Assembly: GCA_030295235.1 (NCBI GenBank)
Contig: AP026149.1
Coordinates: 434,001-498,000 of the forward strand
Direction: 5' to 3'
Length of the DNA stretch: 64,000 bases
Source of the DNA: Fistulifera solaris
Taxonomy: Eukaryota
Position 1 is the first letter of the stretch. Each line of letters begins with the position of its first letter. Below, piece by piece: positions 2,921 through 60,377 of the stretch. The position numbers were made by a program, and so were the translations under genes. Under the pieces are notes generated by a model. The model worked only from the letters and a program-made list of their open reading frames with translations, did not search any database and was not told the DNA's origin.

Positions 2921-3459
2921 TTTGGAATACTACAGTAATGATAATGAAAAGAAATAGTCGGCAAGTTTGTTTTTGTCGAGGGATGGTAGGTGCCTTTTGC
3001 TCGGGCAACCACCGCCGCGTGCGAAAAAGTATCGCAAATAATAATGATGACCACGTGATGATGACGATGAAAAAATTACGCGCGAAAAACAAATACTAAC
3101 TCACTTCAAGTTAGGGTTGGGGATCACCGAAGAACGGATCTTGCCGATCACGGATTGCAGATAAGGCTCACTTTCACTATGACATAAGGTGTTGACCCTC
3201 TTTTTTTTAGAATTTCGAGAAGGGTTTCGCCGTTGAGTACTGGTTGGTACCGGTACCGGTACCTGGTACTGGTAATAATGGATTGAAGGAATGCGCGCAC
3301 ACGACAAAAAAAATAAATTCTGTTGCATTTTGCATTGCTTGCATATTACTAGTATTTGAGAAGAGACAAAAGGTTTGTTGTTTGGCTCCCTTCCTTTCAT
3401 TTCTTTGTGTTCTTTCATTTCGATTCATTACCTCAAGACAGCAACAACAAGCAAGAAGC

Positions 3460-5203: not shown

Positions 5204-6351
5204 TCATTGCGATTGCGTCACTCCGTCTGACAAAGACATCGTCGCTTGAGACGTACTATGTATGGATTCCTCATTGGTGGCTTCGGGAACGGGGGACATC
5301 GATGGCCTGGGCTCCGTCGTGCTTTTGGATACCGTCGATGGAGGCGACTTGTTGGTCACATCTTTCGTTACAGCAACTTTGAATTCTGCTTTCTTCGAGG
5401 GTGTCACTTTCCGCTGCTTGGGCGTTGTAGAAGTGACGGCTTTTTTGCGGACTTTTTCTCCAGTCGACGATGATGTAGGCGCATCGACATGACACTGTCG
5501 CAAAGCCGTCATATACACCGGATCTTGCTGAATTTCGGGATAATCGTGTAAGAGTTTCTGCAATACATCTTTGGGATTGGAGTTGTCGTCTTGCAATGCC
5601 GTTTGCAGTAGTTTTGTACGTTCAAACGAACGATTGGCTTGCCGGTGTGCCGCCAAGATCTCGTGTTGCAAGACGGGTAAATTAACGGCGTCCGCCCGGG
5701 GAACACCTCGATTGACGCAGTAGCGAGGCGTTTTACTTTCGTCTTCCTCTTGCACTTTTGAACTAATCCAATGCAGACCAGCACTTCGAGCACATCTTGT
5801 ATTAAGGAGGGGCTGTTGTTGACAGGCAAATTGTATTCAAGTTGTCCGGCTGTGAGAGCTCCGTACAGTTGAAGTAGTGTCAGCAAGTCTCGGACAGTTT
5901 GCGGAATGATGGAGTAATCTTCCAAGTCAAAGGAATGTTGATTGGATTGCGTTTGTGGTGTTTGTTGCGCTGGCGGTGGCGGAGTATGCGTTGAGGATCG
6001 CTGTAGAGTTTGTTTCTGTATTTTTTGCGAGGATGCTGGTTCCGTAGGTTTCTTGACCGCCGGATTGTTGGTTGCACTCGCATCCGAGAGCTTGCGCTTC
6101 TTCGAGACCGTCTCGGCAACGATGGTAGGTACCGTTTGTGCTGCCGCAGTAGCAGGTGGAATCGGGTCGCTCTCTTTTTCTTGTATAGATTTCTCACTGC
6201 TGATAGTGGTGCTTTCAGCGGGTAAGTCTTGCACTTTCTCTCTTTCGTTTGTCTTCTGGTGCTGCTGTTGTGGATTGTCGATATTAAGTGCTTCGGTGAT
6301 CTTTGCAACATCCTGCTCTTCGACTATCTTTTCAGCTGCCTCTTCCGTCAT
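5204..6351 (-). CDS. Hypothetical protein with possible winged-helix segment; one homopolymer frameshift
   Basis: ORFs 5509-6453 and 5204-5755 fuse if one A is added to the run near 5757 (GLVQK-VQEED); LLQLYGALTAGQLEYNL...DVLEVLVCIGLV is wHTH-like. Confidence 0.65.
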
Positions 6352-34044: not shown

Positions 34045-34072
34045 GGTACCGGTACCGGTACCGGTACCTAGT
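34045..34072. repeat. (GGTACC)n palindromic microsatellite
   Basis: GGTACCGGTACCGGTACCGGTACCTAGTAC; a related run lies at 3246-3275. Confidence 0.9.
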
Positions 34073-51136: not shown

Positions 51137-52267
51137 ATGTTGACACTTCTTGATTTACCCGACGATCTGTTTTCGGAATCTATCTTCACGTATGTTCCCG
51201 TGACAGACTTGGGGCGTTTCGGCACCGTCTGTCGCAAATTCCACAACATGAGGCACCTCGTTGATGAAGAATTGAAAGCGAGAGACACCGCCTTGATTGT
51301 ATCACAGCAATATCCCGCCGAAAGTCCCATCCTGTCGATCTTGGACTACCGTGAACGGGTCCTGTCGTTCGAGCGTTGCAGCACCTTTGCGTGGGGAAAT
51401 GACCCGTCAAGCCATCGAACATGAAGCTTGCCCGAGTCACGAAGAAGAAACGGGATGTCAATGTAATCCTCTGGAGAGTTTCCCAAAATTACAGGACGGT
51501 CTTCGAGGTGGGAAGAACTACTTCTTTTTGTCCAGTTTACTGCTATGAATAAATTGCTATGGGAAGGATTTCTTCGGGATGCCAGAACAGAATCGGATGA
51601 TTATAGTCCTCTGATAAGCTTGTTCCGTAACGAAAACGTAGACATTTATCAAGCTTTTGATGGGGAAGAAATCAACAATGGTAGATCCATATTTGCCTCA
51701 GTAGACGAAATGTTCTCCTCTGATAAGCTTGTTCCGTAACGAAAACGTAGACATTTATCAAGCTTTTGATGGGGAAGAAATCAACAATGGTAGATCCATA
51801 TTTGCCTCAGTAGACGAAATGTTCCAATGGATGGAGTTCGTGCGGGGAGAGAAACTCAGTTTCACCTTGACGCTAGCAACATCACCAATCTGACAAAAGA
51901 ACATGTGACCTCGGACCTGCACGTGACAGTAGTCAGCCTGGATGTTCATCAACACAAAACGCCGCCACGAAAGCTGCATCTGCATTACTCGTCCCGGGGA
52001 CATATGCAGTCGCCTTCTTTTGAGGATGGGTCGGTGTCGTTTGACATTTTGCGTCATCGGCACTTGCCGAACTACCGTGCGACGGTCCGTGAGACTGATA
52101 AGACTTACACGCTCTCTGAATATGCTACGCCATACATGATTTGGACGTCACGAAATTGTCTCTTTAGTTTCTCTCTGCTTCACACGTTTGACTTGCGCAG
52201 TTTCTTTCCCGTGACAATGCATGTGGCGAGTTTGAGACTGGGACAGATTCATTTAGACCGTGAGTAG
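51137..52267 (+). pseudogene. F-box protein gene disrupted by a 109-bp tandem duplication and several frameshifts
   Basis: N-terminal LLDLPDDLFSESIFTYV...FGTVCRKF; four consecutive ORFs in different frames. Confidence 0.65.
51607..51824 (+). repeat. Perfect 109-bp tandem duplication
   Basis: 51607-51715 is identical to 51716-51824. Confidence 0.95.
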
Positions 52268-53418: not shown

Positions 53419-53711
53419 TCGTATTGTGCGTTTTGGAAAGGATAACAGTAGTGTGTTATACGTTTGACGTCAACAGGTGGACACAGAAATTGTTTATTGT
53501 TGTTGTGTTGCACCTTTTGTTTTATCTGCGTGCAAGCACGCGACCGCAATATTATATCTTGAACCACTGTGACTTCCTCCCTTGCCAGCTTATACTACTA
53601 CCTCCGGGGGGCGATAATGGGCCCACGGTGGCTCGTGTAATTTTTTTGTACTGAAATTCTACGTGATATTACGTAGGGGGCAAAAATTTCCCTCCGTCAC
53701 CAACGTGTTAA

Positions 53712-54222
53712 TGTTGAAATTTCTACCGCGGTCTGTAACTGCTCTCGGCTATCGGGGACTCCACACACCCCAGACGAAAGACTATTGAAACAACGAACTT
53801 TTGCTCCAAACACTCGTTTACAGAATTATAACGATTTCCTCACGATTACTTTCGCTTTCCTCTTTTTCACTGGTCTCCGATCTGATCTTGATCTGATCAT
53901 GATCCGATCTTGCCAAGTCCATTTCTCCAATAACAACTTTAGGATAAAATAGCCCTTTCTGCCAATCACCAGATTCTCCATTATTGCATGTTCCTTAGCA
54001 ACTAGCAACAGTCATCGTCCATAATTGCATACTGGATTCTTCCGTGATCCCAAATCCCCAAACATATAGTTCGAAACACTTCCGAGACTCCTTTCACGAG
54101 TAGAATGCTTTCCCAATAAACTAGGCGGTCATTTCGAACCATTCCGACATCCGATGACGTGTCAACTCATGACTGAATAAATCTTTCAGTCCGACACTCA
54201 ACCTCGACCTCGCTCTTTGACA
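53712..54222 (-). repeat. 3' LTR (511 bp)
   Basis: Matches 58585-59097 apart from two G-run length differences (compared by eye). Confidence 0.97.
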
Positions 54223-57200
54223 TCCTCCCTGTCGGCTGCTAAGATTAACTGCGTCATGAGTCCTTCTCTAACAACAGGCACCAAAAGATCATGGATTTTC
54301 TCTGTCACATTCTTGGTTTCCAGATCTGCAATATTCCTTTCCGATCGAATAAACTTCACAACCAGCCTGGCTTCTTCCTTCTCCGTTGCAGCCATCATCT
54401 CCCTTATAAAATGCTTTCGAATATCAATGTGTTTCGTCCTATTCCCCACAACTTGGTTTTTCCATCAAGAAGATTGCGCCCGTGTTATCTTCAAACAAGG
54501 TAGCCGGTCGAATCTTCACCTTCGGAAACAATTCTTCGAATAACATCTGCAAAAACTTGATGTCCGTCGCACACGTAGATGCCGCATAATATTCGCCTCC
54601 GTACTTGACAGTGTCACCGCCGGTTGCAACTTGCTTGAAAAACCACACAAACAACCTCCAATGGTAACAAAGTAGCCAGTAACACTTTTCCGCGTCTCCT
54701 TGTTCGTAGCAAAGTTTGAATCCACCCATGCGTAAACCTTCAAATTAACAGGCTCGCGCAACTTCAAATGAACGTCCGTACTCTCGAGATAGCCAACCAA
54801 TCTCTTCATCGCTCTCCAATGTTCTTCGCCTGGCGAATCCATAAACATTGCAAGCTCCCTGACTGCATTTCCACATTCCGGAGCTACTTTCCGCACCAGC
54901 CACATGAGACGTCCGAGAAACTTCCGATACTGATCCTTATTAACTGGATCGCCTTCGTTCTTCACAAGCGATTCCCCTGGATAGCCCGGTGTCTTCTCAG
55001 CTTTCAACGGTCCAATCAGCTCCTTCCAATCCTTTACTATCTCGTCTTTGTACTCATCCATTCGCACTTCGTAGAACTCTCCTGCTTCATCCGATTTTCT
55101 CTCGTACCAGACTCCCAAGTGTTTCTGAATCGAGCCCATTTCGGTAATGTTGAAGCGCTTCTTGATCTCTCTCTTGAACCAATTGATTTCTTCTTGGGGA
55201 CCGGCAAGGATACAATCATCGACATACACCACAATGATTAATACTGTCTCGCCGTTCACCACTTTAAACCATACACACGGATCCGCAGCACTCTGAATAA
55301 GCCCCAGCTTCCTCAATTCGGCACAGTAGAGCATGAAGTACTCTCGTGGACTCTGGACCAAACCGTACATCGCCCTCTCCAATAGGATGATGTAGTCAAT
55401 CAACTCTTCATGCGTGATGTACCCAAACTCATATAGCCCAAAGGGCCATTCAAGATACACCTCCTCTCTCAACTTCGCTTCTAGAAACGCAGCCTCAACG
55501 TCAATAACTTCAGTGACCCACATCTTCTTCCACATGTAAAGTACTACTGCCAAAACCATTCGAACCGACATGTCCGATGCAACAGGTGAATGCGAAAGAG
55601 TGAAGTCCACACCAGGGATTTGAACAAACCCCCGCGCACAAGTCCGAGCTTTGAAACGAATTCCCGTTGCCTCTTTCTTCTTTTTGAAAATCCACTTCGG
55701 CGTAACAGGCTTCCGTCCTCTCTCCTTCATCTGCTTTCTAGGAACCATCTTCCAAGCATCTCTTTTAATGAAATTTTCAATCTCCTTCTTCATTGCCTCT
55801 TTCCACTTGTCTGCATCCCGGACCAACCAAGGCTTCCTTGTAAGTTTTCGGCGCACCAGGATCCGACGCCAGCTCCGTATTCAAAACGTAGTGAAAATAA
55901 CCTTCCGACACATCGATTGTATTGATCTCTCCTTGAGCGTTCATTGTTGGGTTATATGAAGTGTCCAGCCTTGCCATTTCTCTATTCAGTCTTTTCATCG
56001 TCGATTGCGTCTCTTTCCGTTGATTCGGTGCTGGAGTATTGTCCGCCGTAGCCTCGGGTACCAGAGCTTCCGTAGGACCTTCCACAGCCACTTCGACAAC
56101 TTTCTCTGCCGCTTTCTCGTCCACAACTTTCCTCCCTGCTCCAGCATCGACATCTTCGAGCATCACCGGTTTGATTGCGACTTCCTCCCCAATTTGGTCA
56201 TCCTTTAAGTCGACTTCCATTCCAGCTGCAAACATCCTTAACTCTGATGCAACTGAAGCACTCGATCCATGCCAGTCTGCCCAAGTGACGTCACGTGAGA
56301 GAATGACAATATTTTCACCCGGCTTGTAAACACGATACGTATCGCCCGAATGCGAATCCGCGTACCCAACCATCACGCATTTCACTGACTTCTTCTCCAA
56401 CTTAGGCTGTTTGTTTCGTAGAGTCACATATCCGATCCGCCCCCACTGAACCAAGTGTTTCAGTATCTTAGGATGCTCGCCGTACCACGCATAATCAGGG
56501 CTCGATTCCACATTCCGATTCGGGACAGCGTTATCCAACTTCGTTGCCGTGTGAACAGCCTCGGGCCATAACTTTCCTTGATGCTCATCCGACAACTTCG
56601 CCGCCAACATCATCGCAAGGGCCTTATCGCGAATTGTCGTGAACTTCCTCTCAACAACACCGTTCATCTGCGGAGTATGCGGGGCAGTAAACTCCATAGT
56701 TATGCCCCTCGCCTCACAGATCTCTTTGAATGTTCCGTTCTCGCCTGCATTATCACACCGAATGTACTTTACCGTTACGTTCGGATCTCCTTTCAAGCGA
56801 TCAAGAAATAGCGTCATGACTTTGCCAATCATTGACTTCTTTGTAACGAAGTAACTCCAAGCTTTGCGCGTGTAATCATCCACCAATAAGATCCAGTAGC
56901 AACTCTGTCCCAACGATTTCTTGTAGGGCCCACTCGTGTCCACGTAGAATCGTTCTCCTTTCGCCGTTGCTTTGATAGCCGTCGACTTGCACACCGCCTT
57001 TGCTTTCGCCTTCGCATACGCGCACGCCTCGCATGTCTCCTTGGTTCCAGTTAACTCGATTCCCAACTGTTTCATGAGACTCTTCAACGGAATGTCGCTT
57101 GCGTGTCCGTACATATCGTGCGCAGCATTTATGTCCATCTTCACTTTGGTCTCCACCGCATGGACATCTGACTTAACAACGCTGGCCTTCAAGTAGTATA

Positions 57201-58531
57201 ACCCATAGTGTGACTGAGGTACCGTCAACACACTCTTTCCGGAGGGGTCAGTGATCTTCATCGCACAACTGGTTATCTCAATCTTGCACCCTTGCTTCAC
57301 TAAAGCCCCAGTACTGATGATATTCTTTGCGAACGTTGGCGCCACCTTGACTTCACTCAACTTCATAGTACCACCCACAGTAGCGAGCATGAGTGTACCC
57401 TTCTTGTGTACTTGGACTTCCTTTCCGTCGCCGACGACCAAATACTCCTTCGTCGAAATAACATCGCGCAAAATCGTTTCATCCAAAACAACATGGCACG
57501 TCGCTCCACTGTCGAGAAGAAACCTTTCCTTGTCGTTGACTCTCGACGTTTCGACCGCACCAACTTGATGAACGACGCCACAGAACTCTTCGCCGCCTTT
57601 GCCGACCTCATAGCACATGCCAACGAACATGTTCAGGTCCTTGTTCTCCGACTTCGGATCCTTGCCGTTCGACTTGTCCGGACACTCGCGAGAGAAATGG
57701 CCTTCCTTGCCACAGTTGAAGCAGACTTTCTTCTTGTCGCTCTTGCACTCCGCTGCCTTGTGTCCTTGTTTGCCGCAGTTGCGGCACTTTCCTTGAACTT
57801 CTTCTTAAAACCACCCTTGCCCTTTTCGACGTTTAATGCTAAATTTTTATTTTCTTTTTTGTCTTTTTCTTTTTCTTCGTTTTCTTCATCGTTCTTGGGC
57901 TTGAAACAGCGCTTCCACTTGTTCCGGATCTCCTTCTCGAGGTCTTCAATCGAGGTCTCGTTGATCTTTCCGCTCAACTTCGTGATCACATCCGAATACT
58001 CGTCAGGAAGGTTGGCCAAGTAGTGGGCCTTCAAAACGAAACTTGGCTTCACATACTGCGATCCGATTGTCTTCAAACGGTTCTGCAACCGATCGCACTC
58101 CAGGAAGAACTTGTCAGGGTCATCTTCCTTCGAGCCAACTTGCACCGTCCGAACTCCCGCCAACACCTCCGCCAAATCTTCCTCGCTGTTCCGGGCGTAC
58201 TTAGCATCCAAAAGCTTGAATGCGTCTCGCATCACCATCCGCTCTCTTGACAAGACCCAAAGGAACGCCTTCACACGCAATCACCAACAAATCGATGATC
58301 TCGAGATTGCTTCGATACAACTCCTTGTCCTTCGGCCGTCGCCGCCGGCCTCCCATCGCAACTTCCTTCGTGGGGATCTCGGCCTTCAGGTCATCGAACA
58401 CACTTGTCCAACCTCTCTTCGTGATCAGCGACATCGTCTTGAACTTCCAGTCATCGTGACGACTTCTCAGCGACCTTGTCGTCCAACGGGTAGAAGGTCA
58501 AAGCCCTCATCTTCTCTCCCTCGTCGGTCAT
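54198..58531 (-). CDS. Copia gag-pol polyprotein, split by ~8 single-base frameshifts
   Basis: Two CCHC knuckles (CRNCGKQGHKAAEC, CFNCGKEGHFSREC), protease LLDSGAT, HHCC plus integrase DDYTR/CDNAGE/NGVVER, RT KARTCARGF and YVDD, RNase H VDSNFA, EDNTGA, TKHIDIR; stop lies inside the 3' LTR. Confidence 0.95.
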
Positions 58532-58584
58532 CTTGTCTTGTCTCGTAAACTTTTTTTTTTTCTCAACGCCCACGCTTATAAGCG

Positions 58585-59097
58585 TGTTGAAATTTCTACC
58601 GCGGTCTGTAACTGCTCTCGGCTATCGGGGGACTCCACACACCCCAGACGAAAGACTATTGAAACAACGAACTTTTGCTCCAAACACTCGTTTACAGAAT
58701 TATAACGATTTCCTCACGATTACTTTCGCTTTCCTCTTTTTCACTGGTCTCCGATCTGATCTTGATCTGATCATGATCCGATCTTGCCAAGTCCATTTCT
58801 CCAATAACAACTTTAGGATAAAATAGCCCTTTCTGCCAATCACCAGATTCTCCATTATTGCATGTTCCTTAGCAACTAGCAACAGTCATCGTCCATAATT
58901 GCATACTGGATTCTTCCGTGATCCCAAATCCCCAAACATATAGTTCGAAACACTTCCGAGACTCCTTTCACGAGTAGAATGCTTTCCCAATAAACTAGGG
59001 CGGTCATTTCGAACCATTCCGACATCCGATGACGTGTCAACTCATGACTGAATAAATCTTTCAGTCCGACACTCAACCTCGACCTCGCTCTTTGACA
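58585..59097 (-). repeat. 5' LTR (513 bp)
   Basis: TG...CA direct repeat upstream of the gag ATG at 58531. Confidence 0.97.
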
Positions 59098-60377
59098 TGT
59101 TAACACACCAATGGAGGCATCACCATGGTGATTTTCATGGCAATACAAACCATTCAATATGAATAAATGCAAGTAAACATGACCTTAAAACCTTTTTTTT
59201 AGTACTTGTGCCCGGTTTTGTCCACTGGCGCGGTCTTTCTCTCTCGTTTTGACCGAAAGATGAAGCACAACACGGACGACAACGACCACGCCCGGATGCA
59301 GGTGTTTGTTGCTGTCCTCCATGCAAGCAATATATCCTGTCGTGACAAAATTCCTCATTAAAAAGTCGGCTCCGCCTATAGACACCCCTCCTATTGATTG
59401 TCGCTTCTCTCCCTCGCAATTACACGGACCTATGTAAGCCTCTATGGAAACCTTTCGTCAGCAATGCAATTCTTTGGAGGGCGAACGTTGATTGTTTTGG
59501 TGTTTGAAAAGCCTAGCGATTTCAACTTAAATACCCCCAATAAGAGCGATTTCTTCCACAATAAAGCATCTGATAGTTCAACTTGCCGAGACTGGGGCCT
59601 TTTTCGTGGCGAAGCATTAAAAGTCCATCGTCATTGGTTGTGCCGTCGTCATCGTTTTTTTGAATAGAGTTTTGCGGCACTAAACACTCCTTAATATCCC
59701 CAAAACCTGTTCACGCTGCTGATTGCTGCATTGTTACTTTTTGAGCCCTCGGAAGGCTGTTGGAAAAGGCAGAGAAGGCGTCTCGCGAAGCAAACTCTCT
59801 TTGCCCTCGCGATCGTCATTGCTCACCGTCGTTCACCGATAAACACCAGCGTTCGCTCTGTTCTTTTCGCAAAATACTTCCAAACAACCCTCAAGGAACG
59901 CCTCCAGTATCCCTTTGCTTCAATTGATAATCGTTATAATCCTTTGTTGTTGCTCCGTCTTAATTTTATGCATCCTTCAGTTGATTGTGTCATGGTCGAT
60001 CGAGTTCGTTGAGTTTCCGCGTGTCCTTGTTCCTCTACGTGGATGATTCACGTAGAAAGTCAGTAGGAAATGATTTACACGGGGGAATCGCGTAAGGGGT
60101 TTGGGCCAATTATCGCCCCCCGGAGGTAGTAGCAAGCACGCATGCAGGCCAGCCTGTCATTCCCGGACTTTTTACTAATACTAAAGTTTTCAACAGCGCG
60201 CAAGCCGGGTTCTTTCATACAACATCAAGCCGCCATTCGATCGCATCGAAATATCGTGGTAAGGGCGATGATGTCGAAGTATTGCTATTGAAGATTACAT
60301 TTCAATCTTTGTCGAAATAAACATAAAAAGAACGACAAACAACACTGGCAGTCGCGTAAGCATCGCTTAAAGGCATC

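Follow-up and report, generated by a model that had tools for sequence, protein, structure and literature searches.

A palindrome in the primer-binding position of a young Ty1/copia retrotransposon, conserved in symmetry while its letters change, as a possible site of tRNA-independent priming

In all long terminal repeat (LTR) retrotransposons, minus-strand DNA synthesis starts at the LTR end, where the 3' end of the primer pairs with the first bases beyond. The stretch of DNA analysed here (the window, 64,000 nucleotides (nt) of Fistulifera solaris contig AP026149.1, positions 434,001 to 498,000) carries on its minus strand a 5.4-kb Ty1/copia LTR retrotransposon, with LTRs at 59097-58585 and 54222-53712, which raises the question of what this primer might be. 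The last base of its 5' LTR is 58585, and a perfect palindrome starts at the very next base, in place of a primer-binding site (PBS) of the TGG type; on the element strand the junction reads ...GAAATTTCAACA, the LTR edge, CGCTTATAAGCGTGGGCGTTGAGA, eleven A residues, GTTTACGAGACAAGACAAG and the ATG. In the window copy, no TGG is found within a few nt of the LTR, where the canonical PBS for the 3' end of a transfer RNA (tRNA) would have it. The original prediction, made from the letters of the window alone, had described a palindrome in place of the canonical PBS of a copia element; this is confirmed, and all its coordinates are right. The palindrome can be delimited in two ways:

58573..58584, minus strand: 12-nt perfect palindrome CGCTTATAAGCG, the conserved core, at the position of the primer-binding site
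58571..58586, minus strand: 16-nt palindrome CACGCTTATAAGCGTG, the core plus CA/TG, which was the unit of the original prediction

The answer that we favour is that the palindrome is a tRNA-independent equivalent of the PBS, acting through the pairing of two RNA copies of the element in a form of self-priming, and we consider the case for this reading to be evenly balanced. The position of the palindrome, its conservation, its compensatory changes and the absence of both a tRNA-type and a Tf1-type site are observations; from our analysis of these we infer that two RNAs probably pair as a dimer, that one of them is probably cut and that its end probably serves as the primer.

The evidence comes mainly from relatives of the element. 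A reverse transcriptase (RT) alignment of the query and 21 matches was used to scan metagenome contigs and yielded 79 loci with 35-53% identity, in which we ran two screens, one for all perfect palindromes of at least 12 nt and the other for outer pairing of any length, with a loop allowed, at 2879 AACA sites. A perfect palindrome of 12 or 14 nt stands right after an LTR-terminal [TC]AACA in 41 of the 79 loci and in the window. The second screen returned 52 AACA sites with at least six outer pairs; 42 of these are uninterrupted 12- or 14-nt palindromes, all after a T-rich [TC]AACA end, and the remaining ten are looped hairpins, all in contexts that are not LTR ends. Wherever the LTR end was set independently by the LTR pair (L019, L028, L031, L046, L079, L080 and the window), the palindrome begins there. 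Five more loci fit the pattern outside the count of 41. L085 has a 12-nt palindrome at the end of its contig, and L090 has a 10-nt palindrome, CAAATATTTG, followed by TGGTAAGGAGAGC (L090:21-45 and 5609-5631). The other three carry decayed palindromes, with one mismatch each in L042 (CATTTATAAACG, L042:3220-3231) and L044 (CGTTTATAAACA, L044:3110-3121) and two in L029 (TGTTTATAAACT, L029:3406-3417); these mismatches fall at the terminal CG dinucleotides and at least two are changes of CG to CA, which fits the deamination of methylated CpG in inactive copies.

The palindrome comes in 20 distinct versions including that of the window, and hence in 19 others among its relatives. Over the 20, pair 1 is C-G in 17 and T-A in three, pair 2 is G-C in 14, A-T in five and T-A in one, and pair 3 is C-G in eight, T-A in seven and A-T in five; every pair position varies, yet stays complementary. 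The central tetramers are of eight kinds, all of them self-complementary (TATA, TTAA, TGCA, GATC, CTAG, AATT, AGCT and ATAT), and the symmetry runs unbroken through the centre in 20 of 20 palindromes. RNAalifold, applied to 34 sites, returned five pairs, and four of the five outer pairs have changes on both sides; the compensatory changes that the original prediction had proposed to look for among relatives are thus present. In a maximum-likelihood RT tree of 39 rows (ten loci, L022, L025, L046, L053, L082, L029, L044, L087, L092 and L032, were dropped for stop codons), the site is found to either side of the midpoint root. The window falls into a group with L016 and L031 (support 100/99), and close relatives carry differing palindromes in the case of L016 and L031, L033 and L072, and L055 and L078. 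As judged from the sequences, the conserved property is self-pairing and not the sequence itself. That letters vary while symmetry stays suggests that selection keeps self-complementarity, the centre included, rather than complementarity to a host tRNA, and this conservation of the site across the lineage favours the fold-back or tRNA-independent alternative that had been offered at the outset. Since the centre is always self-complementary, which a hairpin loop does not need, the structure under selection would be a duplex of two 12-14 nt copies.

Not all of the symmetry in the window needs this explanation. The prediction of a 16-bp palindrome straddling the LTR edge was correct in that a perfect 16-nt palindrome is present; the conserved unit, however, is the 12-nt core. 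Of 34 distinct contexts, 25 show no symmetry beyond the LTR edge, eight show 1 nt of it within the LTR and one, the window, shows 2 nt, which is about what chance would give, so that the 16 bp of the window can be taken as the 12-nt core plus luck. Block shuffles of the window contain a mean of 1.0 palindrome of at least 16 nt per 64 kb, and the window itself holds five palindrome rows of at least 16 nt, four of which are (GGTACC)n repeats. A palindrome of this length is therefore not rare in itself, and its significance rests on its position at the LTR edge and its recurrence in relatives, the two grounds on which we rejected a chance origin.

The sequences on either side of the palindrome can also pair with each other. 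For this part of the element, the window was compared with contigs of four sequencing runs, X1, X2 and X3 among them, and the relevant features are:

58586..58592, minus strand: TTTCAAC, 5' arm of the closing stem, at the LTR end; duplex free energy (dG) -6.0, z -3.2
58561..58567, minus strand: GTTGAGA, 3' arm of the closing stem, pairing with TTTCAAC; duplex scored against shuffles
58550..58560, minus strand: A-run, 11 A in the window and 7 in other copies (X1, X2)
58529..58531, minus strand: presumed gag start ATG, 53 nt from the LTR

The original prediction had extended the stem through TCAA and TTGA past a 4-nt bulge. The pairing holds, as TTTCAAC with GTTGAGA; the bulge is 3 nt in the copies of X1 and X2, which have GG where the window has GGG at 58569. 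The spacing between LTR and ATG, put beforehand at about 53 nt, is 53 nt in the window and 48 nt in the X1 and X2 copies. Across relatives, pairing between the final 13 nt of the LTR and the 35 nt past the palindrome is stronger than in shuffles (mean z -1.47 over 37 distinct contexts, with z < -1.64 in 15 of the 37). Of 20 contexts with a TCAACA end, 13 have TTGA no more than 16 nt past the palindrome, versus 1 of 13 with an xTAACA end (Fisher p 0.0014), these contexts being related to one another. With moderate confidence, we suggest that the unique 5' (U5) end of the LTR and the leader would form a closing stem capped by the palindrome.

The position of the palindrome limits what the primer can be. 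The first bases past the LTR are its 5' half, which obliges the primer to have its end in the 3' half of the same palindrome, and since this is so in every family, the element's own leader is the sole RNA that can provide such an end. In the mechanism that we propose, two genomic RNAs would pair via the palindrome, presented by the stem of the LTR-end TTTCAAC with the downstream GTTGAGA. One of the two RNAs would be cut just 3' of the palindrome, by analogy with the transcript cleavage that releases the primer of Tf1-type elements, and the new 3'-OH would prime the copying of U5 and the repeat (R) region on the partner RNA. The partner would retain its own palindrome, which would permit plus-strand transfer as with a tRNA primer. 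In a less likely variant, the cut RNA would fold back and prime on itself. A duplex of 12-14 bp should be far more stable than a hairpin of 4-5 bp.

Several points weigh against this proposal, the first of which favour its main rival, namely that the palindrome serves only in the dimerisation or packaging of genomic RNA and that the minus-strand primer is something else. We judge this rival to be a serious possibility, though on the whole improbable. What marks out dimer linkage sites is self-complementarity over the full length while the sequence varies, and Ty1, which belongs to the same major copia branch (PMC5445492), dimerises via the self-complementary PAL1 and PAL2 in its 5' untranslated region and still uses the initiator methionine tRNA (tRNA-iMet) as its primer (PMC6844567). 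Like PAL1, PAL2 and the dimer initiation site of retroviruses, the palindrome is a self-complementary sequence in the 5' leader that could pair two genomic RNAs. Unlike Ty1 and the retroviruses, in which a tRNA PBS is also present, the elements studied here have the palindrome in the PBS position and no other site. The palindrome starts at the first base past the LTR in every family, just where the 3' end of the primer must sit, and no tRNA-type motif follows it. In L031, 14 nt separate the palindrome from the ATG; its leader is thus the palindrome plus 14 nt, with no room for another primer site. Palindromes embedded in the PBS itself have been discussed for mouse mammary tumour virus and human immunodeficiency virus 2, those of the former being dispensable for dimerisation (PMC8096270). 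The other unfavourable points concern our own data. None of the runs recorded as RNA contains the element. The site was not found in 33 of the 79 loci, most of which, though apparently not L087 and L092, the most distant of all (36-37% identity), nor L038, L054 and L064, are too short to hold the LTR/leader junction. Screening for perfect palindromes partly builds in the result that the site is always perfect, the less biased screen is still anchored on AACA, and related loci are non-independent samples. Covariation in the closing stem is significant for TTGA alone (p is 0.069 for GTTG, 0.69 for GTTA and 0.46 for TTA[AG]), and the 101-nt leader folds no better than shuffles (z -0.55).

The second rival is a fold-back in cis, in which the RNA would be cut past the palindrome, a hairpin of 4-5 bp would form and its own 3' end would prime the copying of U5 and R on the same molecule. 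The minimum-energy fold of the window leader does include a 6-bp hairpin with a 4-nt loop, and the geometry would place the 3' end beside the terminal A of the LTR. We nevertheless think it unlikely that this is how the site works: a hairpin has no use for a self-complementary loop, yet all 20 palindromes, with their eight central tetramers, are symmetric to the middle, and a cut template would presumably lack a site for plus-strand transfer unless a second RNA supplied one.

Priming by half a tRNA, the anticodon half of an Ile(UAU)-like or iMet-like molecule, as in copia, Ty5, Osser and Bianca, would need a host tRNA that, as far as its anticodon loop, complements TTATAAGCGTGG(G)CG, and the original prediction had entertained such a tRNA fragment. 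The centre of the palindrome in the window does resemble an Ile(UAU) loop, CUUAUAA being a legal one, and half-tRNA-Met and half-tRNA-Ile sites are confined to Ty1/copia lineages (PMC6317226); the half-tRNA sites (Met in copia, Ty5, Osser and Bryco, Ile in Bianca) are, like the palindrome, a copia-specific departure from the 3'-CCA end that abuts the LTR. However, those sites are non-palindromic and fixed by the tRNA across a lineage, whereas here the letters change and the symmetry stays: the centres of relatives include TTTAAA, TGATCA, TTGCAA, TCTAGA, AAGCTT, TAATTA and others. The tRNA-fragment reading does not survive the 19 other palindromes with their different centres, since no single tRNA fits all 20 and most centres give no legal anticodon loop. 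Moreover, a perfect palindrome of even length cannot complement a 5-bp stem with a 7-nt loop, and the flanking stem does not fit an anticodon arm. ARAGORN detected no tRNA in the window. We regard half-tRNA priming as very improbable.

It is just as hard to credit a displaced canonical site, in which the 3'-CCA end of a tRNA would pair with TGGGCGTTGAGA, 12 nt past the LTR, with the palindrome as a spacer, and which calls for a host tRNA ending in ...UCUCAACGCCA or ...CGCCCA-3'. A TGG does directly follow the 12-nt core in the window, but other copies have TGGCG and not TGGGCG, and TGG after the palindrome is found only in the window and L090. In the 34 contexts the palindrome is followed by A in 20, by T in nine, by G in five and never by C, and an iMet-type motif, TGGTA[GT]CAGAG, occurs in none of the 79 loci. 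GTTGAGA makes better sense as the sequence that pairs with the LTR end, and an overhang of 12 nt past the terminal CA would presumably require trimming.

Self-priming of the Tf1 or TAR type, in which the first bases of the transcript, lying in the LTR, fold back onto a site past the LTR, has been predicted in plants for a single copia lineage, TAR (PMC6317226), but is the least credible reading here, as in the window there is no Watson-Crick match of at least 7 nt between the 54 nt past the LTR and the LTR, and among 36 sites a single one, AT-only, shares at least 8 nt with the 700 nt upstream.

The trans-priming that we propose would nonetheless have something in common with these elements. 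In Tf1, Tcn1 and TAR, priming is likewise independent of tRNA and relies on a fragment that cleavage frees from the transcript of the element itself (PMC6317226), as we propose here. The Tf1 primer, though, is the 5' end of the transcript on a non-palindromic PBS, for which no such complement exists here, and the primer proposed here would be the leader cut after the palindrome and acting on a second RNA.

The closest published parallel appears to be the hairpin site of the fungal GalEa copia elements, which our site seems to resemble in kind and to differ from in length, register, diversity and downstream partner; the comparison is with the published description of GalEa. GalEa elements carry a palindrome at the edge of the LTR and no PBS (Donnart et al., 2017; PMC5445492). 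In that description, CHSeq1 is 9 nt long, is palindromic only together with the final A of the LTR and reads CTGATCAGT or CTAATTAGT in 85% of families, CHSeq2 lies 12-41 bp downstream and is complementary to CHSeq1 with a fixed A/A mismatch, and no known model fits the site according to the authors (PMC5445492). In the same work, one major branch of copia unites GalEa, the Ty elements and four CoDi clades of diatoms. In GalEa as here, copia elements without a tRNA-type PBS have a short palindrome in the PBS position at the 5' LTR edge, a larger hairpin can be closed by complementary sequence lying downstream at a distance of a few to tens of nt, and the site is more strongly conserved than the LTRs. 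The 9-nt CHSeq1, by contrast, needs the LTR A to be palindromic, whereas our palindromes have 12-14 nt and start after it, their symmetry reaching the final A, as that of CHSeq1 does, in 9 of 34 contexts. Two dominant sequences in GalEa stand against 20 versions here, and fungal hosts against what are probably diatoms. Finally, the partner of CHSeq2 is CHSeq1, whereas the arm downstream of our palindromes has its complement mostly in the LTR end; half of the palindrome is repeated downstream in the CGTTTGATCAAACG families only.

Some details of individual relatives bear on the same comparison. In eight loci of the CGTTTGATCAAACG families (L034, L035, L049, L050, L052, L074, L076 and L082), a partial direct repeat, AGTTTGAT, lies 4-6 nt past the palindrome; it could pair with the 3' half of the palindrome in the manner of CHSeq2 and so form an alternative fold. 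A second, interrupted inverted repeat, CGCTTTGAAAAGCG, is found about 290 nt downstream of the main palindrome at L035:3767, L074:2934 and L076:3923. The palindrome of L090 stands in a context loosely like the iMet-type PBS TGGTAGCAGAGC given for metazoan GalEa (PMC5445492), and may be a relic of, or an intermediate between, a palindrome and an iMet-type site.

In the literature covered, which leaves most subscription journals outside, there is no account of a palindrome replacing the PBS in diatom copia elements. A term search of Maumus et al. (2009; PMC2806351) found no discussion of the PBS in the text available, and the phrase 'conserved hairpin site' was found in PMC5445492 and in PMC6934838, the latter citing it for bivalve TRIMs. 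Our elements would be a second large lineage, probably of diatoms, with a site of the GalEa kind, for which no mechanism has been available since 2017. The 20 covarying versions, centre included, are what the fungal data lacked, and point to RNA-RNA pairing and to a model that can be tested by mutation. In practice, LTR annotation tools that demand a tRNA-type PBS would probably miss such elements or rank them down, and the elements would be out of reach of host defences built on tRNA fragments.

A wider reading is tentative, and we doubt that it will hold as a whole: the element's own RNA would prime in trans, the palindromes would be private primer codes of each family, GalEa would work alike, and this would be a fourth general mode of LTR priming. 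Plant LTR elements have three types of primer, full tRNA, half tRNA and the Tf1-type self-primer (Neumann et al., 2019; PMC6317226), and the mode considered here would stand beside these. If true, private codes would bar cross-priming and parasitism between families in one cell, and would explain why the letters diversify while the symmetry is kept.

The remaining parts of the element are as follows:

58585..59097, minus strand: 5' LTR, 513 nt, TGTCAAAG...TTTCAACA; direct repeat of the 3' LTR
53712..54222, minus strand: 3' LTR, 511 nt; direct repeat of the 5' LTR
54223..54230, minus strand: polypurine tract AGGGAGGA, adjoining the 3' LTR
54516..58280, minus strand: coding region for gag, protease, integrase and reverse transcriptase (Pfam), in several frames in the window copy
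53706..53711, no strand assigned: target-site duplication TTAACA (element strand), with a second copy at 59098-59103

Pfam places Pol_BBD, gag_pre-integrs, rve and SH3_retrovirus on 55777-57630 and RVT_2 (E 4.5e-38) on 54516-55856, downstream of the integrase domains, and this order of gag_pre-integrs, rve, SH3_retrovirus and RVT_2 bears out the identification as Ty1/copia made from the letters alone. The domain order, the TG...CA LTRs, the polypurine tract and the short target duplication (TTAAC(A) flanks the element on either side) are all those of a Ty1/copia element. The GGGAGGA/TGT junction between polypurine tract and LTR recurs in relatives L016 and L080. Contigs of other insertions (runs X1 and X3) part from the window sequence precisely at 58585, 54222 and 53712/53711, and thus fix the LTR boundaries independently. 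The nearest named proteins are from Cylindrotheca fusiformis (58%) and Fragilaria crotonensis (46%), the best unnamed match having 76% identity, and from the named relatives the hosts of the lineage are probably diatoms.

The element is young, as had been supposed. Its LTRs are 99.6% identical over 514 aligned columns, and a contig of run X1 represents the empty site, joining 53705 to 59098 with 5392 nt skipped and six letters shared, so that the insertion is both recent and polymorphic, between strains or alleles. The existence of other insertion sites and of an empty allele indicates that the family is active and hence that the palindrome site is under current selection. Family contigs of X1 and X2 differ from the window in the interior (54457-58569) by about a dozen single-base indels, mostly surplus bases in short runs: single-base gaps at 58569, 58458, 58349, 58347, 58335, 58156, 55817 and 54457, along with an A-run shorter by four bases at 58551 and one additional C after 54593. 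Among the differences listed none falls in 58571-58586, a site spanned by one X1 and one X2 contig. The frame changes of the window copy lie near the single-base differences at 58458, 58156 and 55817, and host open reading frames elsewhere in the window are long and open. The frameshifts may be particular to the window copy, as decay, or may stem from errors left by an unpolished assembly within the repeat alone, and they are no proof that the family is dead.

Rfam gave nothing near threshold on 58300-59150 (two matches, E 1.6 and 5.6). In viral_contigs, a 15-nt pattern from the site had 15 matches, all in unrelated phage-like contexts without a tRNA gene and consistent with chance, and a protein scan with the integrase region found no relative. 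Elsewhere in the window there are short (GGTACC)n tandem arrays at 3246-3263 and 34045-34068. Host DNA 22 nt outside the 5' LTR contains a 14-nt perfect palindrome, ATCACCATGGTGAT (59119-59132), which is probably due to chance, shuffles giving about four of at least 14 nt per window. About 1.9 kb from the 3' LTR of the element lies a perfect tandem duplication with a unit of 109 nt (51607-51824).

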